Assembly (NCBI GenBank): GCA_050250375.1
Contig: JBFWOS010000003.1
Coordinates: 559,286-623,285 of the forward strand
Length of the DNA: 64,000 nucleotides
Source: Candidatus Omnitrophota bacterium
GTDB taxonomy: Bacteria; Omnitrophota; Gorgyraeia; Zapsychrales; Zapsychraceae
Reading direction: 5' to 3'
The translations under genes and the position numbers were made by a program. The notes beneath the pieces are model-generated. The model saw only the letters and a list, made by a program, of their open reading frames with translations, searched no databases and was not told the origin of the DNA. Below, piece after piece: positions 4,863-64,000 of the stretch. Every line of letters starts with the position of its first letter. Position 1 is the first letter of the stretch.

Positions 4863-4871
4863 TTTTTTCCG

Positions 4872-5276: not shown

Positions 5277-5296
5277 ATGCTATATTCTCCCTAGTA

Positions 5297-13059: not shown

Positions 13060-13061
13060 CG

Positions 13062-14042: not shown

Positions 14043-14180
14043 TCATTACTTTTACATAAGCCCGATGGTTAAGCCATAAAAAGACAAAATCTGCGTCTAT
14101 TCATAAGACCGTATTATAAATCCTTAACCAGGATTTCGTAACAGAAATATTACCATTGCTTTTGATAGATTGTTTTATAA

Positions 14181-27300: not shown

Positions 27301-30300
27301 CCAGGGCATTCTGATTTTCCTGAATGAATTCGAGAGATTTGTCTCTTGATACGACCGGAAGCGCGACCAGTTTTGGATAGGTGTTTTCAACCAAGCCCGG
27401 ATCAGCCGTTTCTCTAATTTTCAGGTACAAGGCGTCAAACAATCTGGTCAAATATTCAATCAATAAATCCAATAACGATGTGTCTTTCGTCCAATGCTCG
27501 GCAAGGACATATTCGGCGGCCCTTTGCGAATGAGTTTGGTCCATATCAGGAATGACCAGCGGTACATCAATGGATTTACCAATAGTCAGCGTTTCTTTGA
27601 CAACATCCAGCCCGCCTAGTATTTCTTCAACGCTGATGACCGGCAAGGCTAATGAAACATACGCGGCTTCGCTTCCGTTGTTTCCGGATTCAATCGCATA
27701 GGCTGATGAAACCAGACGTTCAGCCGTTTTGATTTTTCTTGTTTCCGGTTGTTCTGACATTAATCCGAAGACAACGGCCCAGGCTGGATTATCTTGACGG
27801 TCTTGTTTGAATGCCTGCCATTCCGGCCGCTGATCCAGTTCAAAACGCTGGGCGATCTGCTGGACGTACCGCATGTCTTTTTCGGCCACTTTCTTGTCAT
27901 AGAAGGTTCTCCAGGCGGCATCGGTGTCAGTCAGTTCAGGAACACCGCGGGTCAAGACAAGCTGTTTGGCCAAAAGCGCCTGGTCATCTTGACCGGCACT
28001 GCTGTCGCCGGTATTGGTGGCCGCGTAAAAGACAGCACCGACCGGGTTGGCGTTTACAATAGTGTCTTGTTTTACAGTTTGTTCTACCTGAACATCCACA
28101 ACAGCCAGGTCATGAACGGCCGGCAAAGTTACACCGGTTAACACAGTCTCTATCGCACCGCTTATTTCCGCGCTTCTCTTGCCTTCTTCTATTTTCTGAT
28201 CGGATACGATCCAAAGCTCACCGAATAACCTTCTTAAATAATTGATCAGAATATCCAGCAGTGAATTATCTTCAAATAATTTACCGATGTTGATCGTAAC
28301 GATTATTTCTTCTTCCTGGGCTGCATCAACAACCGGCAACATGAACGGCACCGCCAAGGCCTTTTGAATGAGGGTTATGCTCGGTGATTTGTCTTCCGGC
28401 GGCAGAATCATGGCTTTGGCGGAATCAGCCAGAATATTGAGGATGATCTGCCGGATATCCCGTTCAGCCAGCATTGATTCGTCCTCGCCTTCCGCTTTCT
28501 CAGCCGTCAGGTTATGCCCGAAAGCTTTCGCCTGCGACGGATCAATTAAGTGCGCGATCAATTCATGCGGAAGTCCGGTCATGACTTCTTCGCTGTTGTC
28601 AACCGGAACAAAATCCAACCCTTCAAGACTGATGCCCAGGGCAGTTAAACTTTCAAATTGTTCCCGGGTACCAACGGCCAGATGGGCGCCGGATTTGATC
28701 ACCGGACCGACCAGTTCATGTTGGAAAATTTTATCTTGATCGAATAAACTGAACCGGGTCGCGACCAGCTTGACTTCACCGAGCCTCAAGTTGTCTTGTT
28801 CCACATCCACGAACCCTGCCCCGAACGGATGGAACAGACCTTGATGGACAATCCCGCCATCGGAGAACTGCGCGTGGAACGGATCGGCGCTGGCTTCAAC
28901 CTGCTTATCATGGTATTCGGCCTTTTCATTGATCATACCGAGAACCTTGAGCATCTTGCGCTGGATAACGATGTTCTGCGCGTCTGTCCTTCTGAATTTC
29001 TGGATTTCTTTGGACGGACCGCCGACCAGGTGAAGACCGATCAACTCGTGAAGCATGGCTTCGGCGCGTCTTTCATCGGTATATTTTTCACCGGACATCT
29101 CTTCCGGATTTCGTCCGATATCTAACAAGAATCCGTCGTTCAGATCGGACGCGCGGGTGATAATGACATTGTTGTGGTCTTCATCCGCGAACCCGGCCGG
29201 GAAGGCGTTCTTCATCAGGTGTTCGAAAATAATCCTTTGGGTGGCGCTCATCCCCTTGAACACATCCAGATCACCGATGCCTCTGAAGTCAAGATCAAAC
29301 CCGTTTTCAATCAGGACATCATTAATGTCTGCGATGATAACGGCCGCGTCGGATTTAGATCCATCTAGAGTTTTTACGGCTTGACGAATTTTTTCTACAC
29401 GTCCGATAAAGGCTTTTTCTTTGGCGCTTAATGTCTGCGGTTTCGGACTGCTGTTAGCGGCAAATACCCGTTGGAACATCCTTTGATCTTTTCTTCCGCT
29501 GAAGTCGTCCCCAAAATGCGCCGCGATCCTGGTGATAATCTGATCATAAACCTGCCGGTCAAATAATTGACGTTGTTCATCCTTGAATTGATCCAGCATG
29601 CCTATTGTTTCCTGGGCGCCCAATTCAACCAGCGCCAGCACATCGATGGAAGGATTGTTCGGGTCAAGCGCCCGGGCCATCATGTCTCTTAAGTCTTCCA
29701 TCAATGCCCGGAAAGCTCCGGTCATTTGTTCCGGTTTAATCAGGACTTCATCCAATCTCTTCACGATGATTTGCGCAGAACGATGATAGGATGAATATTG
29801 CGGGTCAGCCGGATTGATTTCACTGATCTTCAAAGCCGCGCCTAATAATTTCTGCATGTACAGGTTCCATTTTTGGAAATATCCGACAAACTTGTTGTCG
29901 TTGGCCCGTTTGTCGTCCAGTTCCAGCGCCCGGTCAAATCCCTGTTTGGTCACCCGTCTTGTTATGACTGTCGGTTTTTTCTTGTTTCCATTTTCTACTT
30001 GATCACGGATTATTTCCTGTTTCGTGAAGTAAACGGATTTATGGGCCTTTTCTGTGCCTTTAAGATCGACCTCGACAATTTCCGGGGTGCCGTTTTCTTT
30101 AATTTCGTAAACAGCCCGGCTGATTCTAAGTTTGCTGGTAAACGGCTGTTTGACATCCAGTTCAAACTGACGTTTCGCGTCGGCCCGGATGACACGGTTG
30201 TCATGGATCGCAAGGTCGTGGCCGATCAGGCTGAAACGGTGCATCAAATCTTTATATTCTTTTTCGGTATTGTCGAAGTACGGAACTTCCAAACCTTTTT

Positions 30301-33300: not shown

Positions 33301-36300
33301 CCTTGCCGCCAAACCCGAACAGGCCACCCATAGCCATCGCCATCATTGTGTGTGCATCACCGCTAGAATCTGTTCCACTGACTAACGCATATCCGAGAAC
33401 GACTGCCAGGATGATAAACGGCCCGAAGTGATCTCTGAAGACCACCCGTCCGATAAGATGGAACAACCGTTCAACTAGATAACCGACATACGCGGCCATG
33501 GCCGTCAAGAACCCGATCTTGTAAATGATTCTCCAGTCTGAGGTCACGTTGAAGTATTCAAAAATATCATCCCATGCCCCGTCAAAAATGATCTCTTTGA
33601 TTTCCGGAGAAACAGCTGCCCCAACAACCGCCGCCGTCAAAATAACGACAAACCAGACAAACCACCGCACCCACTGTTTGTAATCGCTGGCCGGGTTTCG
33701 GAAGATATTCTTCGGTCCTTCCACAAAGACCAGTGAATCATGGATCTTCTTGATGCGGATCGCGCGTTTGATCTTGCTGTATACGACCTTGACCGCGGCC
33801 AGACCGAGAAGACCAAGGACAACGGTTAATATGGAGACAGCACCTCTACCCTTAGTTCCCGATTCCCCAATCGTAACTTTAGTTTCTTTATAAGAACGGG
33901 TGCTGTCTCCAAGATCCTGAGGATCAAGTTGTGCAAGAACAGGGGCAATGCCATTAACTTCAGTCTCCGATTCCCCAATCGTAACTTTAGCTTCTCTTAA
34001 AGAACGGTCATTGCCCCTGTTGTTTATAGATTGGACAGCGTCATCACTTTCAGTCTCCGATTCCCCAATCGTAACTTCAGTTTCTGTTAATGAACGATGA
34101 ACGCTGTCCTCGATTGCTGTTTGGCCGCGGGCTTCATTCGTGGTCAGGATAACCAGCGCGAGAACGCCCAGGATAAACGGCATTAAATATCTCACGGCAC
34201 GCATGATGCGGTTTGCTGCCGGGACCGGTTTCGATTCCTTAATCATGATACCGGCGTCAACCAGAGATCGGGCGTGTTCAATCATGCCGCCGTTTCGTCT
34301 GGCGATAAAGTATTGTTTGATGTGTTCCAGCCCGCGTCCGGCGATATCATCAACGATGGCCGACATAAATCCGCTCCGGTTTCGGCTGCTGATGAAGTTG
34401 ACGACGCGTCTGGCGTTGACGAATGTCTCTTTATCCAGAAGGATCGCCGCGATACCCAGGGCGGCGGTTCCTTCAACCTTCATGCCGAAATGCTGCAGAA
34501 GGGCCATGGTGTAAATAGAATCCACATCCGCGACCCGGTAGGCGCCGTCGGCATATTCACGGAAGCGGTCAATCGCCGCCGGTTCAGGTGTGGCTGCGTT
34601 GCCGTCGGCCGGCATGTTGTTGGCGGCCGGGATTTGTTCCCTGATCGGAACGGCCGCGCCCTGCTGGATCGTGCGGAAACTCATGTCGACACGCGGTGTG
34701 GTGAACCCGTAGACATGCGCTTGCGGAATTCTGTTCTTGATTTGGAGTCCGGTTCCGGCAATCCATCCGGTTGATCCCATGGCCATGGTCACAACTAATT
34801 CACCTTCTTTTAGTTGTTCAATATTGATGGCCGGATCAGCGATGTAGCTTTGAACAACTTCTTCTCCGCCGGCGGCATAACCTGTACCAACCCATTCTTC
34901 AGCTGCTTTATCAAAATGACGGATCTGCATTTTGTGCCGCGGATCTTCATCCACCAGTTTCCAGACGACCTGTTCGGCTTCTTCATAACTTCCGTAATCG
35001 GCGTACAACCGTCCGCCGGCGTTTTTAATATTATTCTTTTTGTGTTCCAGGATATCGGTATCTGAATAAACGACTCCCTGCATGGTCTCAACCATTTCAA
35101 TAAATTGCGCCTGCGTTAAACCGCCCAGCGGCTCTCCGGTAAAGATGCCCGGATAATCCCGCTGCAATTCCAGGAACAGACGGACGAAATAAGCGTATCC
35201 GTTTTGCTGTAATTTTTCTTTGACCGCACGCACCGCGGTGACGGTGGCCAGGCCGTGGTTACCGGTAGAAACAGCAATGACTTCATACGGGATCTGTCCT
35301 TTGAGGACACGGACAAAGACTTCAACCGGCGCGCGGTTCTTGAATGATCCGGTACGGTATTGCCCCTGACCTTCGGCTTCGAAACCGTAAGATTCGTCTT
35401 TGAAGTCGATTCGGATCTCGCGGCCTTCTTCCCGTTCCAGAATGTCATTGACGAACCGGTTGATGCCTTCGATGGTTGTCAACGGCGTGGCTGACGGAAC
35501 AAGACCGAATTCACGCTGCAGCCGCAAGGCCGCGTGGACCTTTTCATCCGTAATGCCGCCGGCTTCTCTTCTGGCTTTAGCTTCGCGATGCGATAACGGC
35601 GTCAGAATAACCCGGTCAATACCGACCGGCAATCCTGTTGGGGTTGTTTGCGCGCGATGGATGCGACCTGACTTCTTCAATAACGCTTTAACGGAGAATA
35701 AAATTCTCTGGGCAGCAGCACGAACTCCAGTTCCCGATTCCCCAATCGTAACTTTAGCTTCATCTGTTAATGAACGGCTGCTGCCCATATCTGTTGTGTC
35801 GCGGTACGCGACAATAATCGGTGTTTCAAAATGTTGTAACGAAATTGTCTGCGGATAGCCTTGAATGGTTTCTCGCACTTCTACGGTGAACCCGAGGCTT
35901 CTTAGATGACTGATGAAATAATCTTGATATTCCGGTTTGTTTTCATCCTGATGAAGTCTGACAAACACGAGACTCTTAGACAATGGTCTGAAGTAACGAT
36001 CCAGATTCTCGACCAGGTCTTTGTTCGCGCTGCGGTTCGGCGCATTGATGCTCACAATATCAAATTGACGTCTGAACCGTTTATGTTCTGCGGCATCACT
36101 GATGCTGATATTTCTGTTTTCTGCGCGGCCTTTGCGGTCATGCTGACGTTTGTTTTGAATCAGATAAGAATGGTCAATGCCGGCGACTCGGGCGAATAAG
36201 CCTGTTTCTTTATTTTCCGCCACAATCCGGTCGGCGAATTCATTACGGGTACGGCCGGATCCCAGGTCAATCAACGATACCGGTTTTTGCGAACCAAAAT

Positions 36301-39300: not shown

Positions 39301-42300
39301 GAACAACCTCTACGTCAATCGCGTTATAGTTCCGTATATCGGTATATCGTGCAAAGAATTTGGTGATTCGTACAGCGGTATAAATCAATGCTGCGGCAGA
39401 AAGGACACCTGCCAGAACAGCTAACCAGAACCATGCGGTCGTTCCGGAAGCACCCATCAGGAACGGCGTTACGGCCAGGATGACGACAGCGCGCAAAATA
39501 CGGTCACGTCGTAAAGTTTTCGCCGCCGGAGGCGCGCGGGTTTCTTTCGTTGAGACCGTTTGGTTATGTTTCTTTCTGAGACTGAGGACCTGTTTGATCA
39601 ACACAACCGGAATGGTGACAATCACGGCTAACGCCGCCACGGCCAGCCACGGGCTGTGCTCAAATCCCGGTGTAGCGGACAACCCAAGAATCACGGCCAG
39701 GATGACGCTAAACGGTGATGTCATCAGTTTGGTTGACTCCGGCGCCTGCCAATCCCGGCTGGTGATCTTATCTTTGCGACGGATGGACATCAGTTTTTGT
39801 TCAAGGACATCCTGCAATTCTTTGCTTAAAGGTTTATCATCCTTAAGGAGAAGCAAGGTATCGTAAGAAACCTGTCCGATATCCGCATCCCCGATAACCT
39901 CTCCTGTCCCGGCGTGGACGTTGATGCCCAGTTGAGTAAGAACAGAACTCAATACATACAACCAACCAGAGAAGTTAACGGCGGAGATTTCAAGCAGTGT
40001 CCCTTCTTTGCCCTTGTATGTGGCCCCGGATAATTCGATCTTTGTCAGGATGTCCGTTTGCGGGACATTAAATGAGAGTTCAATATTCGCCTGACGTTCT
40101 TTAGTTTGTGTGGCGGTTTCACCCTCGGTGGCTGTTTCTCGTTTTTCTTGCAGGATATCTTCCGGCCGTACTTCTTCATTAATCATGCGTTCGATATCGC
40201 GTTTCATATCGGCCAATAAATCTTCCCAGGCCGTGCTGATGCCGGTGCGGTGTTCAACAAAGAAGTGGTCGATGACCAGACCGGAAGGTCCAAGTCCGAC
40301 TTTGTAGTTACGGCGGGCGAATCCATACGCCAGCAGCACGACAGAAATCTTGTTTAAAATACCCGGCCGGTCTTCATCCATCGGGTCAAACCGGATGAGG
40401 ATCTCTTCCGTCTTGCCTCTGACCGGCGAAGCACTGGACGGATTACTGACTGAAATGTTGATGCGGTCGTCGTGAGAACGGTCTTGCATGACCAAACGTC
40501 TGTCCTCTTCTACTTGTCTGGCCTGTGAGGCGCTCAGCGTTTGCACAACGTAATTCCTGTCACCGATGCGTTTCAGGTCAACATCGAAGACCGGATAGTA
40601 ATCTTTCAGACGCTGCGCGATACCCTGAGGCTGCAGAACGCTCATCTCGATCATGGTAAAGACCGTCAGCAGGGCCAGGCGGATCGGATCGTTTCCTATG
40701 ACTTCCTTGAAGAATTCGGCCATATCCGCCGGATTATCACCCTTACGGATGCGGGCGATCAATGCTTTTTGGTTTTCGATCAACCAGACGATCAGCCGTG
40801 TTTCGCGGCTGAACGGCAGCATGCCCATTCTGGCCAAAACGAAATACAATCGTCCGGAGTGGAACATTCCGTCAATACCGGCCACGATGTGGACCGGAAG
40901 GAACCGGCTCAGGCCGTTGATAATCCATTCCGGTGTGTGACCGTTGGTGTGCATCAACAGGGCCAGGCGCAAAGCCCGTCTCAGGTTATGACGGGTCAGA
41001 TAATCAATGCTTGGTTCCAGTTTGGCCTGCATGTCCGCAAAGACGGCCTGATCCATATCGTGGACCATTCTCGGTTCATGGAACATCAGCGCCTCACCGC
41101 GGACAAACGTTGCGACCGTGTAATGGTCTAACGTCAGATGATGCGGCGGATCAAGGTGACGGCGGTACATCAGTTCTCCGAAACCAAAAACAATCTTGGA
41201 CAGGATATTGTTGTTGGCCTTGTCCGCAAAATATCTTAATCTCCAGACGCCGGCGGTCAACGGCGCGTTGACTTTCATGTATTGGTGGACGAATCTGAAC
41301 CGCAGCAGCATCCATGTCCACCATCCGGCGGTTTCCATTTCGCGTTCGATTCGGTCGAAGATCCCGCCTCTTAACGCGGTCGGATAATTAACGGCAACGT
41401 TGGTCAATAAGTCGAACAATCGCGGCAGATAACTGCGGCGTTTCGGCTGTTGATAATCAATCGCCAGCGCGCGTTGGTTGTCGCGGTGCTGGAATCCGTC
41501 TTCCAGCATGAGATATGTTCCGGTTCTTCTGACAACCACAATGTCGTCCGGAAGGCTGGTGTCGATGGTTTCCGGTACGACCCTCAATTCATCGGCGCCT
41601 GACAGGATGAGCCTCAACCGTCTGAACGCGAACGTAAACAAGCGGTCTTGCGCCCTTCTTAAATCTTTCAGGAATTCCGGAATGATCTCTGCCGGTGTCC
41701 CGGTATAGCCCAGTTGGGCGGCGATCAGGGCGTATTGGTCAACCCTGACCCTGGTGCGGTTGGATTTGATGTTCATTTGCCCGACGACCGCGCGGACTTT
41801 CAGCAGCAGGATGTACGCGCGCCGGGCTTTTTCCAACAGGTCGCGGTCAAACACACCTTTATTCAACAGATAATTCCAAACCGCTGCATCCGGGATGAAT
41901 TCTTCAGAAGCCAAAGCATTGGTATCGGTGTGTTCGGCGATGAAGCCCGCCAATCCGATTGAATAGATTGTCTGCAGGTCTCTTAATGAACCGTTGCCTT
42001 CCTTCAGGTTAGGCTCTTTGGTATTCAAGCCTTCGCGGAAACCGTTCTTTTGGTATCGGATCTGCCATTCCAGACGTTTAAGCTTGGCAAAAACCAGCGG
42101 ATCAACATTGTAAGCCTGTTTCAGTCCGGCGAAGACTTCCATTCTCCAGCCGTTCCAGATTGAACGATCTCCGGCCACATAACGGGTCTCAAGGATAGAA
42201 CTCGCGATCTGGACCTGGGCGAGGTTTTCCGATTCCCAGCGGATGGTTGAAGCGTTCGGAACAAATTCAACCTGTTCATTGAATACTTCCGTAACCACCA

Positions 42301-45300
42301 TGCGGACGAACCGAAGTAATTTCAACTGGCGTTCAAATTCGGCCAATACGGCTTGTTTGTCCGCATCGGATTCATCGACAAACCGTTTGATCGCTTTAAA
42401 TTGATAATCAAAGTCATAAATGGCTTCGACCTTTTCCCGTTCCCCGGCCGGAACGAACTGCATGACTTTATCATGATTTTCTTCATACCCTTTCACTTCG
42501 ATTCTCAAGTCGAGGTCTGAACCCGGGACATATTCACGGCGGGCATAACTTCCGTGGGCCATGAAGGTCACATCCCCGTCATCGCCGAATCGTTCAACCG
42601 TATAACGGTTCAATTGAATGACGATATGGTCCAGCCGGCGGGTGGTCAGGTCAGTCTTAACCTGGATCGGCAGCCGCGCGTGGTCAACCCAGATATAGTT
42701 AAATTCATATTCCCATTGTTTCTTTAAAATCTGTGCTGTTTGTTTGATCGCCTCATTGTCATCGCCGATTGCACTTAAACGAATATCGAGCGTGGTTTTG
42801 ATTCTTTCCAACCGTTCGTTCAAACGCTCTTCCAATTCTTTGACCTGCGCGGCAACTTCTTCTTCGGTGAGATTAGACTGTTCGGATTCTTCGTCTTTCT
42901 TTTTACGGAACATGAACGGCCATAACATGGCGAGTACATACGGATTGTTGGTGGTGGAAGACATGACCGTTGACGGATCCGCGCCCATCAGATAAATGGT
43001 GACGATGGCCGCTAAGACAAACGCCATGATGATAAAACTGATAAAGCCGTTTTGTTTCAGCATTTTTGCCAACTTTTTAATGCGTGAATTTTGTTTTTTG
43101 TTGCTGCCTGCAAAGAAGTATTCATCCGTATCGATCTTTGCCTTGAGGTCGTTGTGTTCCTGTTTGGCCAGGTGGGCGATCACTAAACGGTAAATGATGA
43201 ACGACTGGATCAGATCATTCTTATCAAAGAAGTTTGTATTCAGAACGATTGTGTTTCGGTCAAAGTCGATGGCGAATAAATGTCCGTTTGAATAGATCGA
43301 TGAATCCGTCAAAATAAAGGTGATTTCGCGAGGCAGATCAAATTCCGGCGGTCCGCGCGTCATCAGATCCCCGATGACATCGTTGATTTTCGCCAGGAGG
43401 ATCTCTTCGCGTTGGCTGGCCGGTTCTGATGATGTTTTTTCGTAACGGTTTTCAACCAGCCTGACTTTAAATTCGACGCTCAGGTCTGCGACCACTTGAT
43501 CCATGGTTACGTCATCGGTTTTATGACCTTCTTCACCCTTAACGCCTCTCAGCCATTGTTTGACAAAGTCGAAGAACGATGTGAATACAATCACATTATG
43601 GTTGGCCTTTTCAATAATCTTGAATTCGAATCCAAACTTGTCCGCAAAGGCTTTATTTGTTTCAACAGGCGTGACCATGTCTTGCTGGCCGACAGTGACC
43701 AGGACTTTAATACCGTTTTGCCCGATATTTTCCGCCAAGGCAATTGATTCATCCGCGTCAATTTCCAGATGGCGGTATAACCACAATGTCTCAAATCGCT
43801 GACGGAAGCTGCGTTCAGCCACGTTGGCGTGTTCGATCAGTTTATTGTATAGGTATGAATTAACTCTTAGGAATTGGACCACTTTTCTGAATCCGAGTTC
43901 CCTGAAGAAGGCCTGCATACGGACCAGGGCTTTATTCGGCAGGATGTGAAGCATCATGACCCCCCATAAAATCGGACGGAACATGGAAATTTGTCTGTAC
44001 GGCAGTGACGCGAACACAACACTGTTGATATGGCTGATCGCATCGGAAAGAATGTTCTTGAACCGGAATGACTGCAGCGTGTAGCGGTTGGTCAAAAGCG
44101 CCAGCAGGATCCGTCCGCCGAACGAATGGGCCACGATATCCATTTTATGTGTCCTGACTGAACCGGTTGTTTCATAAACATTTAAATTCACTTGTTTAAG
44201 CAGGGATTTGATCTGCCGTTTCAGCCAGGAAGATTCCTCTTCTTCAACGATTTCAAATCCGTTTTGGGCAAAATGGTTGATGACCCAGGCCAGGAATACT
44301 GTTGACCGGGCGACAATGTGGTCAATCTCAAGAATATTTCTCAGGACAACTTTTTCCTGGATGGTTAATTCCTGACCGCCGATGCTTCCGGTTTCCAGCA
44401 GTCCGCGGATAATCTTGTCGGATCTCCAGTGCTGGATAATGACGATAGTGCGCTGCGGATACAGCCTCTTCAATTCTTCCATGTTAAACGTGAGCGTATC
44501 AACGACACCATGAAGGAACAGGATCGGGCTGCCGCCGGCCTTATGGACCTGGAAGGCGTACGGCACATCGATGGTGTTGTCTGAATATGAATTGTATTGT
44601 TCTTCCTGGGTTGGCACATCTTCCACATAAGTATCCGTATGATGCCGTCCGTTACCATTGCGTCTCAGTCGGGATAAGCGTGAACCGTTACCTTTATAAG
44701 CCTCGATGACTTTTGTCAGGGCTGCCCTGGCGCCGGCCGGTCCGTGTTCCGGCAAGACAATAACGTCTTGCGGCATGCCGGCGTAAATCTTCGGTCCGAC
44801 CATAACGCGGGTGGCTTTCGGCAGGGCCGCGAACATCGGATGATCCAGTTCGCTGTCTCCGATAACCAGAATGTCTTCTTCATTAATTCGAAGATGATCC
44901 AGCAGATCGCGTACCGCGCGTCCTTTATCGGCCCGGGATACGTGCAGAGCGACGGATGACACCAGAACGTTCAGGCTGCTGAACCTTTCGTCAGCGGCCA
45001 GACGGCGACGGATGCTATCGGCCAAATGTGTGCGGAATTCAACTGTTGTATTTTCCAGCCACAACTTCAGATCAAGGGTCTGTCCTTCGAACATGACACG
45101 GTCCAGAGGCATATCATCCGGCAGAGTTCTGAGCCGCTGTCTGGCCAGATTATATTCGTAGCCGATAATGCCCATAACTTCTTCGATTTCATCATCGGTA
45201 GAAGCCAGGATATCCAGATAAATCGGAATATCGTAATCGATCTGGCCTTGACGGTTGAACCGGTAACCAATTCCGCCGTTGGCGGTATACATATATTGCA

Positions 45301-48300
45301 GGGCCATGGCTTCGGTCGTCAATCGGTCGCTGAACCTGGCTTTGGCGCGGGTGATTGTTTTGCCGGTTACCGCGGCCACCTGAACGCCAAATTGACGAAG
45401 CTGTTCGACGATTTGCACCGATTCATTGTCAAACGCGGTCTGATCATCTTCCGCGTTTCCGTGAAGCAGGGAATCATCCAGGTCGGTAATGACCAGCTTG
45501 AATTTCTTCTTCAGGCGGCGGTCGATTTCGTCGGAAGCGGCCTTCGCTTTTTGGTACTTGGATAATTCAGCGCTGTAAAGCTGTCGCAACGTTTGTTCAA
45601 TGGCTTGTGCGTAATCCACGGATACCAGATAACGTAAGGTCGCCACGGAACGGATGATCTTGCCGTCAATGTTGGCCATAACGTTCACTTCGTATTCATC
45701 TGCGACATCAACCAGTCCGCCGATATCGATCAACACAACTTTATCATCAATGATGCCGTGATTAACGAATGAAGGATCCTGGTTAATATAACCGTATCTC
45801 CTCAGCTCTTCCTGCAGGGTGATCCATTTTTGGACAAATGTGTCGATTTCGTCAAACCGTTTTTCCTTGGCCAGCAACTGTAATTTTCGGGCAAGCGTCA
45901 TTTCAACTTGTTGTTCCGCGGTCGAAACAGTGACCTTCCACGGCCAGCCGCGGACCCGAATGGTCTGCTGTCTGAACTCGTATTCAGCCGGGATAATACC
46001 TGTATCAGCCAGATTATTTTCTATGGTCCGTTCCCGTTCAAAAATCTTGTAGGCGTCTTTTTCTTCCCGGTCGATCACTTTGGCCAGGCGTGGGATTAAT
46101 CTCAGGACTCTTGTTGGGGTGACGATCAGGATCATAAACGCGACCGCCCGAATGATTCTTCTCGCCACTTGTCTGACCTTCATGGATAACGAATCCGGAC
46201 TGAATGTGTTAGCATCCACAATAATCCTGTCGTCTGACAAGAGCATTCCCCTTAATCGGAAAATGACCCATTCGGTTAAGCGGATGGCGAGCTGTTCATT
46301 GAATGACCGGAATCGTTTGATGACATACGTGCCGTTGCCGTAAACCACTTTTTCCCAGCCGGCGCCGATTCGTTTCAACGGTTTTTTCTTGAGTTCTTCA
46401 ACATCTTCTTCCGGCAAGAAGATCAGCCCTGAGGCGGCTAATGTAAGTTCTCCTGAACCATTGTTTAACAATTGGTCGGCCAGCCCGGCCAGACCCAGGA
46501 TGATCATGGCCTTCGGCGTTCCGCGCAACTTGGCGATCAGGCTTACGATAAATAAATATATTCTTAAGTACGCCGGTGGTGCCCGTAATTGAACGACTGC
46601 GTCTCTTTCGCGGACATACTGAACTTCGTTCGCCGGCCCGTAGAGCATGAAGATTGCATCCATGCCGGTGTACCTTCCGTTTTCAATCACGCCGACATTC
46701 CACTTGACGGCCCCGTTGTGTTCATGGAATCCCTGGGCTGAGGCAGGACTATAGGTGGCCAGGTATTGTATGCCTTCCCGTTCGGTTTGGTCGCGTTGAG
46801 CGAGGACTAACCCTTTGGCCAGTCCTTTGACCGGTTTTCCGTTGATCAAATAATAATCTTTTCTTTCTTTCGAGACTGTCCTGGCATCCGGCGCCCCGAG
46901 GGCAAAATTGAACCGCGCGTTAGCCGGCACATCAACGCTTCCACTCAAGGTGAACTTATTGGTCAGGCGATTGACGGATTTGAACATGCCGGAACGGATT
47001 TTCTTTGTCTGGATATGTTTGATCATGCGCGGTGATAAATATTTATCCACACTCCAGATCAACGCGCCGATAAAGTTTCGTTTTGTTTCCTTATCGATAA
47101 TTTGGGCAACAACGATGCCCTTGTTGTTATTTCTGATTGCGCTGCGTAATTGTTTCATCGTGACGGTTTCTTGCGGGGTAGTCATCCACGCGTCGTTGTG
47201 AACCTGGGTTAACTCCGCAGCTTCCGCGGTATAAGCCCAGCGATAAATCACATAGGCATCTTCACGTTCGTCAATATTGAAGAAAATCAATTCTTTGGCC
47301 GGGATGCGTCTGGCATCGCCGAATTTTTGTTCGACAAACCGCTCTAACGCAACCGGGATCACATTTCGGCGGACATAAAGCATCGGCATTTCAGTTCCGG
47401 TCTTGAGATGTTCGACCCGGGCTCTGTTGTATTGCTGGATGACTTTATCCCATGATCCCTTAATAACCTTACGGTCGACAAACATTTTCGCCAGCAGTCC
47501 GGCCAGCGCACCGCCGATAAGCGTTATGAACAATTCAATGCCGTCAAAACTGTCTCTGGCCGTTTCGGTGACACCGGATATTTCTTGAGCTTGAGCTTCG
47601 CCACCCATAAATCCGAAGGCTGTCAATGCCGCCGCGGATATACCCACGATGAACAACAGAGTGGACAACGTGGTAAACCCGCCTTCTCCCCGGTCTTTCT
47701 TCGGCCCGTCGCGCGGTTGCTGCGGTTCATGCTGATCGGTGGCCGGGGCTTCGGCGTCTTTCCTGACCGCGTTGCCCTGATCGGTCACGCTTCCTGGATT
47801 GAGTTCTTCCTGGAGCCGGATGTACAAATGCAGATATTCATTGATACTGCGGGTCCAGTCGTTATTGATTGACATTCCGTTTTCAATTAACGTTCTCCAG
47901 ATAGACGGTGCAAACTTATATGTTCCCCAGGCGCGTTCGATCGCATGGTGTAATTGATTTTTATTTTCCCCTCGGGCGATCTCATTGCCTTCTCTGTCGA
48001 GCATCCTTGACAGCCCCTTGAACACAAACCCGTTTGGTTTTGATCCGCCTTCAAACACGGTATCCGCCAGGCCGCCGGTCAGACGGACGATCGGGATCAC
48101 TCCATAACGCAAGGCGAGCATTTGAGTCAGGCCGCTCGGTTCATAATCAGACGGAACAAGCAGGACATCGGCGGCTGAATAAATATGCTGGGCGATCTCG
48201 TCCACAAATCCCTGCAGATAAACGATGGATATATTAATATTTTTCTTGCGGGCGTCTTCGGCCAGCTGGGCAAACCGTTGTTCCAATTTTGAATCGCCTG

Positions 48301-51300
48301 AACCGCCGACGATAATATCGATATCCAGCGCTTTCATCCGGCCGGCGTACATATCATCCACCATATCGGCCAGGATATCGAGCTGCTTTTGTTCAACAAG
48401 GCGGGACACGACGCCCACCAGCAGACGATCGCTGCCAGGAGTCAGGTACCCGTGTTTGGTTACTTTATCTTTCGTGACTTCCTTCACGTCACGGCCTTCC
48501 GCGAGCATTTCCTGAAGATGCTGTTTGTTTTGTGCGCGGGCTTCAAGGACGGCATCAATACCCTGCTCGATGGAATAATTCTTGAAGAACACTTTGTTGG
48601 TTGACGGATCATTCAATCTGAAGTGAATACCGTTTAATATACCCTTGAACCGTTCGCCTAATGTCTTGAGCAATGTCAACCCGCTGAATAATGTGTCGAT
48701 GACTTCTTTCAGATAACCGCGGCTGACCGTATTCACGGCATTACCCAGGGCGCTGATCTTAGTGAATGTTTGCGGGACAATACCCATCATATTGATCCGG
48801 CTTCTGTGGACGACAAGCTCCCTGACGGCCGGAAACTCTTCTAATCCGAGTTCAGGATACAAGGCCTGCGGATAAGATCCCTGGTAACCGATGTTGTGGA
48901 TCGTAAACAGATTTCCGGTGCGTTCAAAATGTTCTTTATGGATCGTACGCATGTAGAGCGACACCAGGGCTGTATGGTGATCATGGGTGTGGACAATCGC
49001 CGGTTTCAACCCGATATGTTTCATTAACTCCAAAGAGCCCCGGGATAACAGGATTGATTCATAGAAGCCGGTGCGTTCGGTCTTATAGGCTGAATCAAAG
49101 AATTCCGTCGAGTCGGCATCCAGCATGTAGACCGTGATGCCTTCAACGGTCAATTTCTTAGCCGTCAGGACGACATTTTCGTTTTCCTTGAATGGTACTT
49201 CAAAGGCGAAACCTTCGACGTCTTCGGCCCCGGCATAAGCCGGATTTACGGCCAGTTGTTTGAAGTAAGGAATGATGACCACCAGATCGTGTCCGATTTC
49301 GGCCAGGGCTTTAGGCAGTTCGTACATAACATCTCCCTGTCCGCCCTTCTTGACCAGCGGCCCGAATTCCATGGCGACCAGAGCAACTGTGCCTTTGAAG
49401 TTTTGTTGAATGGTCACACGGCCGTTTCCGTAACTGACGTCTGCCCATTCGCGTGAACCGTCTTCGTTTTCAAGGACAAACGTGTATTCGAAATTACGTT
49501 CGACGATTACCTTAACGGTGTAGTGGGCGCGGGACTCGGTGTTTTCAATAAAGGTCACCGGATGGGTATAATCTTTCCATTCTCCGTCCATATTGGAATG
49601 AAGGATAACACGGCGGGTTCCCGTTTCATCTCTGCGGTTAGCGGCAACTTCCAGTGTAACTTCTTGCCCCACTTCAACCGTCCTGAAGGCATTCACAATC
49701 TGACCTCCGGTGGTTGACCTTAAGGCCGCGATGAATTCACGTGTCCCGCGGTACATGACAACACCCAGCGGCGGAACAGTAATTTCGATGGAGTCGGCAC
49801 GGCCGTTTGAGGCGACCGGCTGTGTATTGTGTTTGTCTCTGTCAACGACATCGCTGCCGCCGTACTTGACTGAATCACTGTTAAAGACCGGTTCCCAAAG
49901 GCCGGCAAACGGCACACCTACGCGGTAATCCTGATAAACAACCGGTGTAAAGTTGGCGACAACCAGAACGACTTCATTCGGGTTTTCACTCCTGCGGATA
50001 AAGCTGAGAACCCCGCGTTCCGCGTCGTCAAAGTTGATGGCTTCGAACCCTTCCCGGCTAAAATCAAAACGGTGCAGGTTGCGGTCGTTCTTGTAAAGCC
50101 GGTTGAGGTCGCGGACCAGGGTTTGAATGCCCTGGTGCAGCGGATACTCAAGCAGATGCCATTCGAGGTCACGGTCCGGATTCCATTCCGCGGTCTGGGC
50201 CAAATCAGCGCCCATAAACAATAACTTCTTGCCAGGTGTGGCGAACATCAGCGCGTACAACAGTCTCAAGTTGGCAAAACGCTGCCATTCATCGCCCGGC
50301 ATCTTGCCGATCAGCGAACCTTTACCATGGACGACTTCGTCATGGGCCAGGGCCAGCATGAACCGTTCCGTAAATGCGTACATGCTGTAGAACGTGATGT
50401 CGTTATGGTGGAATCGTCGGTGGATCGGTTGACGGCTGAAATACTTGAGCGTATCATTCATCCAGCCCATGGCCCACTTAATGTCAAATCCAAGGGCCTT
50501 ATCACCGGACTCTATCGGCGCGGTTACACCCGGCCAATCAGTTGATTCTTCGGCGATGGTTATGATTTCCGGATATACCTGATGAGCGGTGGTGTTGAGT
50601 TGACGGATGAATCGTACCGCCTCAAGGTTTTCATTTCCGCCGTAAATGTTCGGAATCCATTGTCCTGGTTGCCGGCCGTAATTCAGATACAGCATGGATG
50701 ATACGGCATCCACGCGGATACCATCGATGTGATATTCACGCATCCAGTACATGGCGTTGCTCAACAGGAAGCTGATCACTTCGTGACGGCCGTAATTAAA
50801 GATCAACGTACCCCAATCCGGATGGTCGCTTTGGATCGGCAATTCATGAGAATAGAGTTCTGTACCGTCGAAGCGGACCAGTCCGTGCAGGTCGCGCGGG
50901 AAGTGGGCCGGGACCCAGTCGAAGAAGACACCGAAGCCGGCCTGATGCAGCTGATCGATCAAATACTTCAGATCTTCCGGCGTCCCGTATCGTGATGTCG
51001 GCGAGAAGTAATTGCTGACTTGGTAACCCCAGGACGGATAATAACTGTGCTCATAAGGAGGCAAGAACTGGACGTGGGTAAATTCCGTTTCTTGTAAATG
51101 CTTGATCAGTTCAGGAGCGAGTTCGCGATAGGTTAACGGGGCCCTTTCGCCTTCTTCTGTCGTCTTGTTCCTGAACGACCCTAAATGGAGTTCAAAAACG
51201 CTGATCGGAGCTGAACTGGCGTTTGACTGAGCCCTTCGTTCCATCCACTTGCGGTCATGCCATCGGTATTTACCTGTATCCGAGACGATGGATGATGTCC

Positions 51301-54300
51301 GGTCCGCATTGTCGCCGGTCGGGAATTCGCTTGCGAAGGCATACGGATCGGCCTTGATCCTGACCACTTTGTCCCGCCCGATAATGCGGAATTTGTAAAG
51401 GGCGCCTTCGGTGACCCGCGGCACATATATCGACCAGACGCCGGTTGATGGATCAAATCTCATGCGGCCGCCTCTGTGCTTCCAGCCGTTGAAATCACCG
51501 ATGACAGAAACGGAGCGCGCATTCGGCGCCCAGACGGCGAAGTAGGTCCCGTAGACGGTATGTTCCGTCTTGACCAGGTGAGCGCCGAGCTTATCATAAA
51601 TCTGGCTATGCGCGCCTTGCTGAACGAATAACAGTTTATCGAGGTCTCCGAACTGCAGGCCTTGCATAATCTTTAGAACGCGGGCTGATTCTTCATCCAG
51701 CTGAATGTGACCTTGTTCGACGGCCGCAGATATTTCGCTGACGGCTTCCGGACGGCTGGCGTACGTCAGAAGGCTGTCCTGAATATAATTATTCAGATAA
51801 TGTTCTTCACGGGCGCTGTTTTGTTCATGCGTCAGATCAAATTCAGCCAGGGCGCCGACTTCATGGATCAAACTGGCCGCCATCTGATTGACGGTCAGGT
51901 ATCCGAGTTCTTCATATTCCGCCGCGTTGGACAGGACGATGTATTCCTCACCGTCATAAACGTAAACAGCAGCGAGGATTCCCGTCACCGGACCGGCGCG
52001 AAGGAGTCCGGCACGGGCCATGGTTCTCAGGCGCTGGGCCATGGCTTTATAACCGTTTGCGCGCAGGTATCGATGGGCGGCGATTACGGCCGGATGATTG
52101 ATGGCCACCATTTCCAGCCGTTTGATATCTTTATCTCGTGATTGTTCAGTGGCGGTTTTAAGGAATGCGAACGCCTCTGGTGTCAACGCTTCAGCCGTTA
52201 CTCTCCATGTCCAGTTGTTTTCAACCGTACCGGGTTTATTCATCCGGGCTTCTTCATCCAGGCCGAGAATATCTTGTAACGGAACGATGGCGAGACGTGA
52301 TTTTGAATCGACAGCCATCTGGACAAAACGTTCATGAATATCTTCTTCTATATTTTCTTCCGCGAGATGTTCCGTTATTTCACGTTTCTGTTCAGCAGTA
52401 GCTTCGCGGGTATACCAGCCTACGGTGGTATTATTATCATGAGTACCGGTGTAGACCACAGAATTTTCAACGTGATTGTCCGGATGGTAACGATGATCTC
52501 CTTCAAACCCGAACTGAAGAACGTTCATGCCTGACAATTCAAATTGTTTAAGCAGGACCGTCACGTCCTCTGTAATAATCCCCAGGTCTTCAGCGATGAA
52601 CGGCAGCGATGGGAATTGTTCGCTCAGATGGCTGAAAAAGTCGGCGCCCGGCCCAGGCACCCATTCGCCAGCCAGGGCGTTTTCGGCCTTGGCCGGGATG
52701 GACCAGTAGCCGGCAAATCCGCGGAAATGATCCAGGCGGACCAGGTCGAAATAATTCAACTGCTGCTGCAGACGCATGGTCCACCAGTCGTAGTTATTTT
52801 CCTTGAGCGCATCCCAAAGGTAAACCGGGTTGCCCCAAACCTGGCCAGTGGCACTGAAGGCATCTGCCGGCGCGCCGGCGACATGAAGCGGCTGGTTGTC
52901 TTTGCCCAGATCGAAATATTCTCGGTGGGCCCAGACATCGGCGCTGTCATGGCTGACATAGATCGGCGCGTCTCCGATAAACCGGACGCCTTTCTCAGCG
53001 GCGTACGCTTTCAAGGCCCGGAATTGTTTGTAGAGCATAAACTGCACAAACATAATCTCTTCAACAGCGGCCTTATGTTGTTCCCGGTAATTGGCCAGGA
53101 TCGTTTCGTTTCTGTCTCTTAATGAATCGGTCCATTCATACCAGGCTTGCCCGTTGTTATTTTCTTTCAGGACCATGAACAACGCGTAATCTTGTAACCA
53201 ATAATTATTGTTGAACATAAAGAGTTCAAATTCACTGTTGCCGTTCTTGGCCTTGAAGCGTTCATAGGCCAGTTTGAGCAGGCCTCCCTTGAAGGCAGCA
53301 ACGGTGTTGTAATCGACCTTGGTTTCATCCGTTGTTTCAAAGGCGGCCGCTTCTTCGGCGGTCAGCAATCCTTCGGCGACCAATTTCTCGATGCTGATCA
53401 TCAGAGGATTCAAGGCGAAGGCTGAATCGCTCAGGTACGGTGAATTTAATGTTGAAACCGCGGTCGGCGTCAACGGCAGCATCTGCCAGTAACGCTGCTT
53501 GGCTCCGGCGAGAAGATCGACAAACGCGTAAGCAGCCGGTCCGAAATCACCGATGCCGTGGCGTGAAGGCAATGAGGTTACGGACAGCAGGACCCCGCTT
53601 TCTCTCGGCTGGATGATCCGTTCGACTTCGAAACGGACTGATTGTTGATCCGGCATTTCTTCTCCCGACACCGGCCGCGCAGGATCTTTGGCGGCGACGG
53701 TTTCGAATGTTCTGACCAGATATTCGAACGGACGAAGCGTGATTGTTTCTTGAGCGGTAAACGCGCTTTGCTGGCCGTTCTCAACATTGGTCCACACGCC
53801 CTGGGCATTACTTTGGCCAGAATTCCACTCTTCCGCCCAGAGGTGAAGGGTGAATTGACGGGTTTCACCGGAATAGTTGGCGATGACCAGCGCCTGTTCC
53901 TGGGCGAGGCTGCGTTGATAGGCGATCACGCCCTTCGGCAAGTCTCCGGTATGAACCGCATTTGTGTCACCTTTGCGCCATAACGCTGATTTCGTTTTAT
54001 TTAACCAGGTATCATAAAATTCCTTCTGTTCTTGATCATACGGCTCGGCTTCATGGTTTTGGGTAACATAGGTTGCGTTCGGTTTTTCGTTTGAACGGCC
54101 GCGGCGCTGGCCGGCGTTGATCATCACCATACCCGGCATGGTCATCATCAGGACAGCGGCTGCTCTTTGTTGTTCACGGTTCAATATCCTGGCGACGCGC
54201 TCGGACGGATCATCATGGTTTTCCAAGAAATGGACGGTGCGCGTTAAATATTCATTTGATGTGCGTTGCCGGTTGGTCAGGTAATCTCTTAATTCTTCAA

Positions 54301-57300
54301 CCGGGAAACGCTGTTCGACCAGGATGTCGAACACATGTTTGTCGTAGGTAAAATGAATGCCCAATCGCTGCAATGCCCCTTCGTGCTGGGCATAACCTTC
54401 GCCGATCAGGATGGCGTTGTTGTATGCACCTAAGAATTCATGCAGGAATCCAGGGATAAATTCTTCTGTTAGGATCTCATTTCCGCCTAACGGTTGTAAA
54501 TCACGGTTGATATGTTCTTTTAACAGCAGATGCGCCATATCGATTCTGGCACCGCCGCCGTTGGTGATATCCAGGATGTATTGCATTTTCGCGGCCATCT
54601 GGGCTCTTAATGCCGGGTTCGACCAGTCTAACTGGGCGGTATCGATCCATGAACCGGAGAACCCTTCTTGTCCGTGCAGAATGGCTTTCGGCCCATTTGC
54701 TGTTTGGACCATAAAGTAACGATTCGTGTATTTCTTGACATCTTCGCGGTTCTTCAAATATTCACTCAGGGTCGTGACCGGTTCATTCAATTGAGCCGCG
54801 TCGCGTGAAATGAACCATTCCGGATGGGCGATGGTCCATGGTGAATCGGCGGCCATGTGGTTCGGAACAAAGTCGACGACCACTTTCAGGCCGGCGGCGT
54901 TGGCGCGTTTGACAAATTTGCGGAACGATCTCTCCGTACCAAATTCTTCGTCGATCGTGTAATCTTTAATGCTGTACGCTGACCCGACCCGTTTTGGATC
55001 CCACATCTTGTTGAAGTCTGTTGTAAATTGTCCTCTCTTCCAGATACCCATCATCCAGATCACATTAAATCCGTCGGCTCTCATCGTTCTGAGGGTTTTA
55101 TTGTCAATTTCATCGAACCGGCGGCCTTTTTCGCGGGTATGCCATAAGAATAAATGGGCGCCTTGTGTTCTGATTTCTTCATCGAGATCAGACCCTGGTT
55201 GCGTAGCGGCCGGGAATTCCCCGCTAACCTTTCGTTCAGCCAGTTCAAAAATTCTGCGGTTATAGTCTGCGTGGACTTTGGCCGCCGCGATAATCGCCTC
55301 TTCCTTGGCCAGCCAGGCGATTTGCGCATAATCCATATCCGGCAATTGCCGTCTCAATGTTTCCATCGCCCGTTGCAGTGTCTGCGCATAAACCTTATCG
55401 ATATCAACAGCCAGCTGGAATAAGATCATTTGTTGTTCGACAGATGGTACAACCCACTTTCTCAGGCTCGGCACATAAACCCGTTTGTGTTTGGCCACAA
55501 ACAAGTTTGGCGGTGTGCGTTTGAAATGAACGGTGCGTTCCGCTTCTTCATCGATCGGGGCGACATTGATCGCGTGGAATTTAACGGCGGTGTAATCGGC
55601 ATTGACCAATCCCGCGCTGTAGATGACAGATGGTGGTGCGTTGATCTGGTTGAGTTTACCGGATGCGGTCTGATCAACGATCACGTAGAGATTATGTTGA
55701 CGCTGCAATCCTGAGGCCGGCACCTTCGGCGTCACATCACCTTCAAGCGCGGCGGCCATAATACCAGCCTTCTTCTCGCCGTTGGCCATGAAGAATGTGT
55801 TGCGGGCTTCAAAGATATCGGCCAAGCCCATGGTATAGGCGTATGGAACCCGTCGGATGTCTGCGTAGTCACTGATGTTGGAATCAATCGTGCTTTGGGT
55901 CAAGCGGATTTGTCTTATTCTTGAGCTGAATTTATTATCGGCTGAAGGTTCATTGAAGGCCAAATGTCCGTTAGCACCGATGCCTAACATCACGATGTCC
56001 GCTCCGCCCATCTGTCTCAACGTTTGCGTATATCGTCTCAGATAAACCGGAAGAATGAAGGCTGTGTAGACCGGGCTTAAGATGTATTTGGTCACAATAT
56101 ACGGGATAGATTTATATTGGTACGGATCATATTTCACATAATCTGCGACCAGATGGATATTTTCTTGCGGGATCGCGACTCTGGAGAACAGGTTCTCGTT
56201 CAAGAAATAAGCGAATGACGCTTGGTGATCCCTGGTGAGACCTCTGTATTCATCCAGATGGAACGCGTTGATGCGTGACCATTCAATTCCTTCTATCCTG
56301 GCCAGTTCGTGCAGGAATTGTTTCATCGTGTTGCCGGTGGCAAAGATAATATTGATCGTTTCTTTAACCTTTAATAATTCTTTTATCTTGGCCGCGACTT
56401 GTCCGGCGGCGCCAGGGGCGAATTGGTCAGGAGCGTACACACTTACGTTATTCGTCTTCGCGGTTTGTTCTCCGGCCATTTGTTCTTTATCCGCATGGCG
56501 AACGGCTTTGAATGCGGCTTTGGCCAGCCAGACAAACGGACCGACGAAACCGATGAAGACCAGATACCATTTATTTCTTCTTAATTGGGCATCTTTAATG
56601 AAGAACCCTTTCTTGTTCACGGCCGATGAGTAGAAGATGTTGAAGAATTGAGTAGAAATACCGTCCAAAGCCACTGCAACCGCAGATAACGCTGGATGTT
56701 GAATCATTAAGCCGCGCAGGATCGAATAGAAGCGGGTCATCCAGAACGCTTCAAATTGTTTTTCGTGGGCCTTAAGCGCTTCTTCTCTTAATTGTTCAAC
56801 ATTGCCACGGATCAGTTCAACCAGCTTGCTATAACCAAACGATCTTAAGCGAACCATCGCCCCAATGCCGACAATCTTCAGGGCAGAGATGAAGGCTGTT
56901 TCTAAATCAGCTGGCTGGTCACCAAACAGACCCGGCATCACTTGGCCGGCCGCCCAGACAATGATAGTAATAGCCAAAGTACCAAGTGCGACGAAACGGG
57001 TTGTCATAAAGAAATTCCTGATTTTGAATGTCTTGAAGAAATTGACCGTGCGGGCTTCCACCATACTTCCAACGACATAGGTCAGGCCGAGGAAGGCGCT
57101 GATCGACAAGATCAGATATCCGAGCATCACACCTTTTGGCGCGATCACGGTGAAGTAGGCCAAACTCAAGAGGCCCATCGCGAGGCCTAACGGGAAGGCG
57201 AGCACGACTTGTTTCTTGATGATGCCGTGGCCACTGATCCACTGTCCGGTGAGGTCGGTGGCGGCCATAAAGATACCGAAGACGATGATATTGGCCACCG

Positions 57301-63976: not shown

Positions 63977-64000
63977 GGCTTCCCCTTCCTGGACGATTCT

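Follow-up and report, generated by a model that had tools for sequence, protein, structure and literature searches.

A divergent GlnD-like module with a degenerate HD domain inside a giant protein of Candidatus Omnitrophota

A 64,000-nucleotide stretch of a Candidatus Omnitrophota genome (assembly GCA_050250375.1, contig JBFWOS010000003.1, positions 559,286 to 623,285 of the forward strand), hereafter the window, contains a giant open reading frame (ORF) in which a segment resembling GlnD is embedded. The question is whether this segment is related to GlnD as a whole, and what it may do within such a protein. A first-pass annotation had described it as a GlnD-like nucleotidyltransferase (NTase) with tandem ACT domains, fused downstream of alpha-glucan enzymes and flanked by transmembrane (TM) helices. 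Sequence comparison places it as a divergent member of the GlnD lineage, with a relationship that extends beyond a lone NTase motif. The ORF and the module are positioned as follows.

21362–63976, minus strand: giant ORF of at least 14,204 residues hosting the GlnD-like module, with a frame that is open to base 64000
39728–42727, minus strand: GlnD-like module, residues 7084–8083 of the giant ORF

The giant ORF occupies two thirds of the window. As the frame does not close before the window end, the true N-terminus may lie outside. Residues are numbered so that the codon of residue n starts at window base 63976-3(n-1).

Homology of the module to GlnD, and not merely to its NTase motif, had been claimed in the first-pass annotation and was confirmed. 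All nine NCBIfam matches (9/9) are GlnD equivalogs, the best-scoring stretches lying mostly in the helical domain and at the end of the NTase region. Two of the Pfam models that had been proposed as a check scored above their cut-offs.

Residues ~7127–7191 of the giant ORF: NTP_transf_2 (Pfam, E = 6.5e-5, 23.7 bits, cut-off 21)
Residues 7315–7445 of the giant ORF: GlnD_UR_UTase (PF08335; Pfam, E = 1e-11, 45.5 bits, cut-off 21)

The ACT model remained under its cut-off of 27 (E = 0.0024, 18 bits), and no Pfam HD model matched the module, even at E = 10. An alignment of the module family (A2) was compared by hhalign with an alignment of 35 canonical GlnDs (A3), which gave a probability of 100% and an E-value of 8e-70 over 808 aligned columns. 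Positions 11–922 of A2 align to positions 18–875 of 892 in GlnD, and the two profiles stay collinear from the NTase over the helical domain and the HD region to both ACT domains, as far as the C-terminus of GlnD. The identity of the module to canonical GlnDs is about 17–20%. This profile-profile collinearity indicates that the GlnD-type domain order with tandem ACT domains, also put forward in the annotation, is real and far beyond chance; two beta-alpha-beta-beta-alpha units are likewise found in the structural model presented below.

The collinearity bears directly on the alternative that the NTase is a member of some unrelated family of polymerase-beta-like enzymes, DUF294 or generic NTP_transf_2, and that its GlnD order arose by coincidence; an unrelated family such as DUF294 had been named in the annotation as what would refute it. 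Weak DUF294 and Polbeta matches do occur in the window, DUF294 scoring 16.5–20 bits for a cut-off of 21, and DUF294 passes its cut-off in two relatives of the module, L001 (28 bits) and P0013 (29 bits), owing to the shared NTase superfamily. DUF294 NTases typically carry cNMP-binding and CBS domains. Neither CBS nor cNMP domains were found with Pfam, however, GlnD_UR_UTase is well above its cut-off, and the alignment to GlnD is full-length, taking in the HD-fold domain and both ACT domains, none of which occurs in DUF294 proteins. On this collinearity the unrelated-NTase reading was rejected, and it is considered extremely improbable.

A word-indexed homology search with the module alone gave no match, and with the family profile it retrieved only six canonical GlnDs. 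Against PDB sequences, phmmer with the module returned only a chance match to RelB. A profile of the alignment A4 described below matched the body of CCA/poly(A) polymerase, GlnE and the ACT domain of RelA, which mostly reflects canonical GlnD and says little on the window. No second copy of the module was found in the giant protein, which has a single NTase.

An AlphaFold2 model was computed for residues 7084–8085 from the 46-sequence alignment A4, that is A2 rebuilt without the row of L001. With a mean predicted local distance difference test score (pLDDT) of 88.4 and a predicted template modelling score (pTM) of 0.87, the predicted fold is confident. The parts are arranged as follows.

42728–42901, minus strand: charged, probably helical linker from the membrane hairpin to the module, residues 7026–7083 (direct sequence reading)
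42158–42727, minus strand: N-terminal helices and NTase core, residues 7084–7273 (AlphaFold2 model)
42506–42556, minus strand: NTase catalytic motif HGSYARREYVPGSDLDL, residues 7141–7157, with G7142-X11-D7154-X-D7156
41603–42157, minus strand: GlnD/GlnE-type helical domain after the NTase, residues 7274–7458 (Pfam GlnD_UR_UTase and model)
Residues 7320–7333, minus strand: conserved motif KEPNLKEGNGSLRD in the helical domain
41459–41587, minus strand: small beta-hairpin insert between the helical and HD-like domains, residues 7464–7506 (AlphaFold strands, model residues 381–423)
40478–41428, minus strand: HD-fold domain with degenerate catalytic residues, all-helical in the model, residues 7517–7833
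40178–40462, minus strand: ACT1, residues 7839–7933, a beta-alpha-beta-beta-alpha unit with GlnD-like 'DRPGILNK' (residues 7869–7876) and 'IDHFFVE'
39782–40042, minus strand: ACT2, 'NFSGWLYVLSSVLTQLGINVH', residues 7979–8065, a beta-alpha-beta-beta-alpha unit aligned by hhalign to GlnD ACT2
39728–39781, minus strand: conserved C-terminal tail after ACT2, residues 8066–8083, with the motif RDWQAPES

The range first assigned to the module held it but also included the charged N-terminal linker and left out about the last 22 residues of ACT2. Likewise, the NTase and ACT domains had been recognized, but the HD-fold domain between the helical and ACT domains, with its lost residues, had gone unmentioned. 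ACT2 is further supported by the phmmer match P0062, in which positions 880–972 of the query align to GlnD 763–852. The tail motif W(M)WQxPE directly follows ACT2 in P0002, P0003, P0004, P0005 and L001, and has no counterpart in canonical GlnD. A helical insertion of about 50 residues (window ~42330–42485, minus strand, residues ~7165–7215) follows the D-x-D strand of the NTase; it is confidently modelled and has no counterpart in L001, the closest relative. The linker (residues 7026–7083) gives a spurious low-complexity Pfam match to Yuri_gagarin.

To see which catalytic and sensor residues survive, A4 was read at those positions where 40 canonical GlnDs show no or almost no variation. Retention is nearly complete in the NTase and helical domains, with exceptions at the GlnD residues G73 and D113. 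The 18 residues kept are G7142, S7143, Y7144, R7146, P7151, S7153, D7154, D7156, R7265 and G7269 in the NTase, and R7307, E7321, P7322, K7325, G7329, R7332, D7333 and R7395 in the helical domain; most of them are also kept in family members of only 23–33% identity. The NTase is of the polymerase-beta type, with G-X11-D-X-D and the motif GGYGR.EL.P.SD.D of GlnD. The spacing of G7142 and D7154/D7156 is that of the motif typical of GlnE/DrrA-type enzymes. G73 is replaced by Ala across the whole module clade. Between the module and its Omnitrophota relative, which are 55% identical, identity is concentrated on the catalytic and signature motifs.

In the HD-fold domain, the fold and its position are conserved, whereas the metal ligands of a catalytic HD domain (H...HD...D) are not. 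Seven positions that are invariant or nearly so in GlnD are replaced in the module, and mostly in the rare relatives too: H469 by Y7619, D517 by T7677, K520 by N, H526 by G, H557 by Q7736, D571 by N7748 and D598 by E7777. The Asp of the HD dyad, T7677 in the window, is E, A or P in relatives. The segment 'DPPHHLTLDHY' (residues 7609–7619) stands where GlnD has 'D.YH.YTVDEH', and 'LLMHTNGH' (residues 7673–7680) where GlnD has 'LLHDIGKG'; H7612 and H7676 are the only ones to remain among the HD-domain residues checked. Two C-terminal ACT domains are present as in GlnD, and ACT1 keeps the GlnD-like DRPGIL...D.F.V pattern.

In GlnD, the N-terminal domain is responsible for uridylyltransferase activity and the HD domain for uridylyl removal, under regulation by glutamine (PMC4285133). 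With its catalytic HD residues exchanged for others, the module would not be expected to remove uridylyl groups. Considering the assignment of the two activities, the conserved NTase site and the lost HD site, the module clade appears to have kept the 'writer' and lost the 'eraser'.

The same evidence was weighed for a canonical bifunctional GlnD acting on PII. The domain order, the full-length collinearity and the identity of all NCBIfam matches are those of GlnD, and PII is the only known GlnD substrate (PMC4285133). However, the NCBIfam scores are all at most 71 bits for cut-offs of 519–1567 (71.3 bits with TIGR01693, for which the equivalog cut-off of 519.4 was not reached), the Pfam HD model found no match, and the HD-dyad Asp is replaced together with six more HD residues. 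In the 64-kb window, Pfam, applied to the sizeable neighbouring ORFs (21 kb) and the whole giant ORF, revealed neither a PII gene nor a PII domain; tblastn of the window with E. coli GlnB gave no PII match, and no PII gene was found in the loci examined for the relatives of the module. Moreover, glnD occurs mainly in Proteobacteria and Actinobacteria (PMC4285133). Given the equivalog scores and the replaced HD residues, the canonical reading was rejected as very unlikely and the module is most probably not a canonical GlnD. The GlnD likeness first proposed therefore holds as homology but not as a working copy of the bifunctional enzyme.

Conversely, catalysis may have been wholly lost, leaving a ligand-binding or scaffold domain that would act allosterically on its neighbours in the giant protein. 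One of the two ancestral catalytic domains, the HD domain, is clearly degenerate, and the module is permanently fused and membrane-tethered. There is also a precedent for in-cis ACT control of an alpha-glucan enzyme without covalent modification in AMA2 of Chlamydomonas (PMC11190351). However, the G-X11-D-X-D motif and about 16 other GlnD-invariant NTase and helical residues are kept across relatives that are 23–33% identical, a pattern expected for a working site and not for a relic. A pseudoenzyme is thus thought unlikely.

Comparison of the model with solved structures gave both halves of GlnE and DrrA as the best matches, and Foldseek returned the same top three. Full-length GlnD was not among the results from either PDB library searched, so that the rank of GlnE probably reflects which structures are solved. 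The result points to a 'protein-nucleotidylylating NTase fold' in general and does not favour GlnE over GlnD. A GlnE-like adenylyltransferase, with glutamine synthetase or another metabolic enzyme as target instead of PII, would accord with these matches, with the short relatives P0007 and P0010, found beside the genes of glutamine synthetase and ornithine carbamoyltransferase, respectively, and with the adenylylation, rather than uridylylation, carried out by actinobacterial GlnD (PMC4285133). The neighbours, however, are known from one contig each and concern short paralogues rather than the full module, and the NCBIfam GlnE models have no match where nine GlnD models do. In addition, GlnE is made of two NTase-plus-helical halves without HD or ACT domains, whereas the module has one NTase only, followed by HD-fold and ACT domains foreign to GlnE. 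This reading appears distinctly unlikely.

Relatives were sought by exhaustive phmmer with the module over 1.84 billion cluster representatives, among which only 68 proteins were found at E <= 1e-3. Five are strong full-module relatives (P0001 to P0005), P0009, P0012 and P0013 are more distant long relatives, and six proteins of about 350–380 residues match the NTase and helical region only. The other matches are canonical GlnDs of 800–950 residues, P0065 and P0062 matching ACT1 or ACT2 of the query at the position of the GlnD ACT domains. Relatives of the module are very rare, amounting to about 10 clusters among 1.84 billion.

The closest relative, L001, is in a Candidatus Omnitrophota metagenome-assembled genome (JAGQKV010000022.1), where the entire 20.7-kb locus is one open frame. 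It shares the module and the flanking helices with 49–55% identity (window residues 6968–8171). In the L001 protein, a 6-phosphogluconolactonase (6PGL) domain is followed by a TM cluster and then almost directly by the module; alpha-glucan, HAD, hydrolase and PALP blocks are missing at the corresponding places of the 20.7-kb locus. P0003 also carries ketopantoate hydroxymethyltransferase, PEP-utilising and PRK domains, and P0009 Rce1-like and VTC polyphosphate polymerase domains. In P0013, a calcineurin-like phosphoesterase (residues 1649–1773) is located just after the ACT pair of the module and could be a substitute 'eraser'. P0012 has a sugar transferase; a weak match to RelA/SpoT synthetases and an ACT_4 domain (residues 542–677 and 1002–1051) lie upstream of its module. 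Long proteins of this kind may thus contain more than one nucleotide-signalling module.

P0002 (1,421 residues, one N-terminal TM helix) is encoded after an amino-acid biosynthesis cluster of Hom, ThrC, a phosphomutase-like gene, Ask and CimA (L006:1347-7702). P0005 is a stand-alone module protein of 976 residues encoded among housekeeping genes. About 170 bp upstream of the P0005 gene, a conserved ORF without Pfam match is present in the four contigs examined (4/4).

L002:7552-7752, L003:2495-2695, L004:701-901 and L005:2601-2801: ORF of 66 residues upstream of the P0005 gene
L010:200-2920, L014:102-2272, L009, L011-L013 and L015: loci of the short paralogues

Of these short paralogues, P0006, P0008 and P0014 adjoin a CoaD-like gene, a pyridine-nucleotide disulfide oxidoreductase and/or a peroxiredoxin. 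P0007 is directly downstream of the glutamine synthetase gene and P0010 adjoins ornithine carbamoyltransferase. P0008 comes from samples that also contain P0005, the full-length stand-alone form. The recurring theme of these contexts is, at most, amino-acid and nitrogen metabolism.

The alpha-glucan enzymes reported upstream of the module are indeed there: alpha-amylase, GH77, CBM48/GlgB and GT5+GT1 were identified with Pfam at residues ~2969–5350. Regulation of this enzyme array by the module, as the first-pass annotation had it, was deduced from the fusion only, and is not upheld by the relatives. Since L001 lacks the alpha-glucan block, and other relatives are combined with different enzymes or stand alone, specific coupling to these enzymes was rejected. 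The module appears to be a portable cassette, used in several long multi-enzyme proteins and on its own, and not an alpha-glucan accessory.

The hydrophobic helices announced on both sides of the module were recovered by a Kyte-Doolittle scan with a count of flanking charges, at residues 6978–6996 upstream and 8084–8127 and 8160–8202 downstream.

42911–43045, minus strand: upstream membrane hairpin, residues 6978–7022, with a strong TM helix (6978–6996) and a short hydrophobic stretch (7011–7022)
39596–39727, minus strand: first downstream membrane hairpin, residues 8084–8127, with helices 8084–8102 and 8109–8127 and a short loop
39371–39499, minus strand: second downstream membrane hairpin, residues 8160–8202, with helices 8160–8178 and 8184–8202

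The helices flanking the module are paired and rich in lysine and arginine (K/R) on the module side. Upstream, RKKK comes directly after the stretch 7011–7022, the hairpin has K/R-rich flanks on both outer sides, and helix 6978–6996 is conserved with L001, for which the alignment starts at residue 6968. The downstream pairs have very short connecting loops and K/R-rich outer flanks. The first, with a 3-residue loop, is followed by a K/R-rich segment and is conserved with L001 and P0001. A similar helix pair is present at residues 5440–5500, after the glycogen synthase, and about 20 hydrophobic segments, mostly paired, lie between the enzyme blocks of the giant ORF. By the positive-inside rule and the pairing of the helices, a crude method, the hairpins would dip into the membrane and return, so that the domains dependent on nucleoside triphosphates (NTP) or sugar nucleotides, including the module, would be cytoplasmic. 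This suggests that the giant protein is built as a chain of cytoplasmic enzymes which hairpins anchor to the membrane at intervals.

Together, these elements lead to the proposal, with a probability of roughly 0.6, that the module is a membrane-tethered, ligand-gated, writer-only protein nucleotidylyltransferase. Helical hairpins on either side would hold it at the membrane, facing the cytoplasm. A small metabolite would be bound by the ACT pair; an amino acid is the most likely one, given that GlnD responds to glutamine. The HD-fold domain, without catalytic activity of its own, would relay the signal structurally and so switch the NTase on or off. When active, the NTase would transfer UMP or AMP from UTP or ATP to the hydroxyl side chain of a protein, in the manner of GlnD, GlnE and DrrA. 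With a dead HD site it would be a writer only, and the group would be removed by another enzyme or by protein turnover, or not at all. Candidate targets are PII, if its gene lies elsewhere in the genome, some other protein, or the giant protein, modified at a site of its own.

Several observations weigh against this proposal. The Asp of the GlnD 'LWD' motif, D113, is Asn in the module and variable among relatives, in a region where the alignment is uncertain owing to the 50-residue insertion. In ACT2, the Asp of GlnD 'DRxGLL' is Asn8001 and the Phe of 'D.F' is Leu8041, both residues being invariant in the 40 canonical GlnDs; ligand binding may consequently depend on ACT1 alone, or differ. The topology is based on a simple hydropathy scan, and TM predictions for giant proteins disagree between programs and are unreliable (bioRxiv 10.1101/2023.11.21.568195). 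Should helix 6978–6996 cross the membrane alone and not as half of a hairpin, the module would lie outside the cytoplasm and have no NTP substrates. To this is added the negative search for PII in the 21 kb of neighbouring genes and in the giant ORF.

In a more specific version of the proposal, the module descends from GlnD, no longer depends on PII and acts in cis. It would sense an amino acid through the ACT pair and UMPylate or AMPylate the giant protein or proteins docked on it, thereby switching the enzyme array according to nutrient status. This remains a speculative scheme, and a doubtful one.

The rest of the giant ORF was mapped with Pfam by tiling, and gave the following domains.

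Residues ~1485–1583: M23 peptidase
Residues ~2516–2761: 6PGL/GlcN-6-P isomerase domain
Residues ~2969–3398: alpha-amylase
Residues 3465–3931: GH77 4-alpha-glucanotransferase (amylomaltase), E = 1e-169
Residues ~4118–4743: CBM48 and GlgB-type branching enzyme
Residues ~4864–5350: GT5+GT1 glycogen synthase
Residues ~6344–6394: HAD phosphatase
Residues ~6612–6796: alpha/beta hydrolase
Window ~34390–35080, minus strand, residues ~9634–9861: PALP domain (PLP-dependent, threonine synthase/dehydratase-like), downstream of the GlnD-like module

A near-complete glycogen toolkit (amylase, GH77, CBM48+GlgB and GT5+GT1; window ~47900–55070, minus strand) is thus contained in one polypeptide, with the 6PGL/GlcN-6-P isomerase domain ahead of it. 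The PALP domain, together with the Hom-ThrC-Ask-CimA neighbourhood of P0002, makes a link of the module to aspartate-family amino-acid metabolism possible. The C-terminal quarter of the giant protein (window ~21400–28100, minus strand, residues ~11960–14050) has no meaningful Pfam match. It aligns to many different segments of the L001 protein with 27–57% identity, which indicates a divergent tandem-repeat region. The genes around the giant ORF are ordinary bacterial ones according to Pfam, including MutS, MutL, QueC/D/E/F, RNase PH, an amidase and a secretin. Among these flanking housekeeping genes is a compact queuosine precursor cluster (window 4872–7025, minus strand) of QueF, a radical-SAM QueE-like gene, QueC and PTPS/QueD.

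Like GlnD (TIGR01693; EC 2.7.7.59), the module has the order NTase, PF08335 helical domain, HD-fold domain, ACT and ACT, with the signature residues of the NTase and helical domains. Unlike GlnD, it is one part of a protein of at least 14,204 residues, lies between TM hairpins, has lost the HD residues, has the 50-residue insertion in the NTase and a W-W-Q-x-P-E tail, and has no PII gene nearby. DrrA/SidM of Legionella differs from the module in carrying guanine nucleotide exchange factor (GEF) and phosphatidylinositol 4-phosphate (PI4P)-binding domains. By analogy the module would work like GlnD, GlnE and DrrA, while homology assigns it to the GlnD lineage. The alpha-amylase AMA2 of Chlamydomonas is activated by glutamine via an ACT domain that was compared with those of GlnD (PMC11190351). 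The fusion of ACT with an alpha-glucan enzyme in one protein is common to both cases, but the single ACT domain of AMA2 controls the amylase next to it directly and no NTase is involved, whereas the ACT pair of the module is part of a complete GlnD-like unit, separated from the glucan enzymes by about 1,700 residues and several membrane passes.

The host resembles the Archaeovorin-type giant proteins of Omnitrophota (bioRxiv 10.1101/2023.11.21.568195) in its great length, its many TM helices, GT5/GT1 and central carbohydrate-metabolism domains. These proteins usually have a divergent SecA_DEAD domain, which was not detected with Pfam in the 14,204 residues of the host inside the window, the N-terminus of which may lie outside. 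The main text of that study, like that of a 2026 Omnitrophota genome survey, contains no GlnD, uridylyltransferase, nucleotidyltransferase or ACT domain. A literature search found no paper joining Omnitrophota with uridylyltransferase, and 'GlnD-like' led to one unrelated paper.

The module family is a rare clade of HD-dead GlnD used as a built-in module of giant membrane proteins. If the proposal is true, a rare clade keeping the writer and the sensors, with the eraser lost, in membrane-hairpin giant proteins would widen the role of the GlnD family and would give a first handle on the regulation of Omnitrophota giant proteins. Action in cis, if true, would be the first case of a regulator that works by nucleotidylylation and is part of its own target; it would also be the first proposal of a logic by which these proteins are regulated. 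Should the NTase be inactive instead, the module would illustrate cleanly how a regulator with two enzyme activities can decay into a scaffold that binds a ligand. As the module is compact (1,000 residues), with a confident in-silico fold and clear catalytic residues, the hypothesis is testable in vitro without the whole giant protein.

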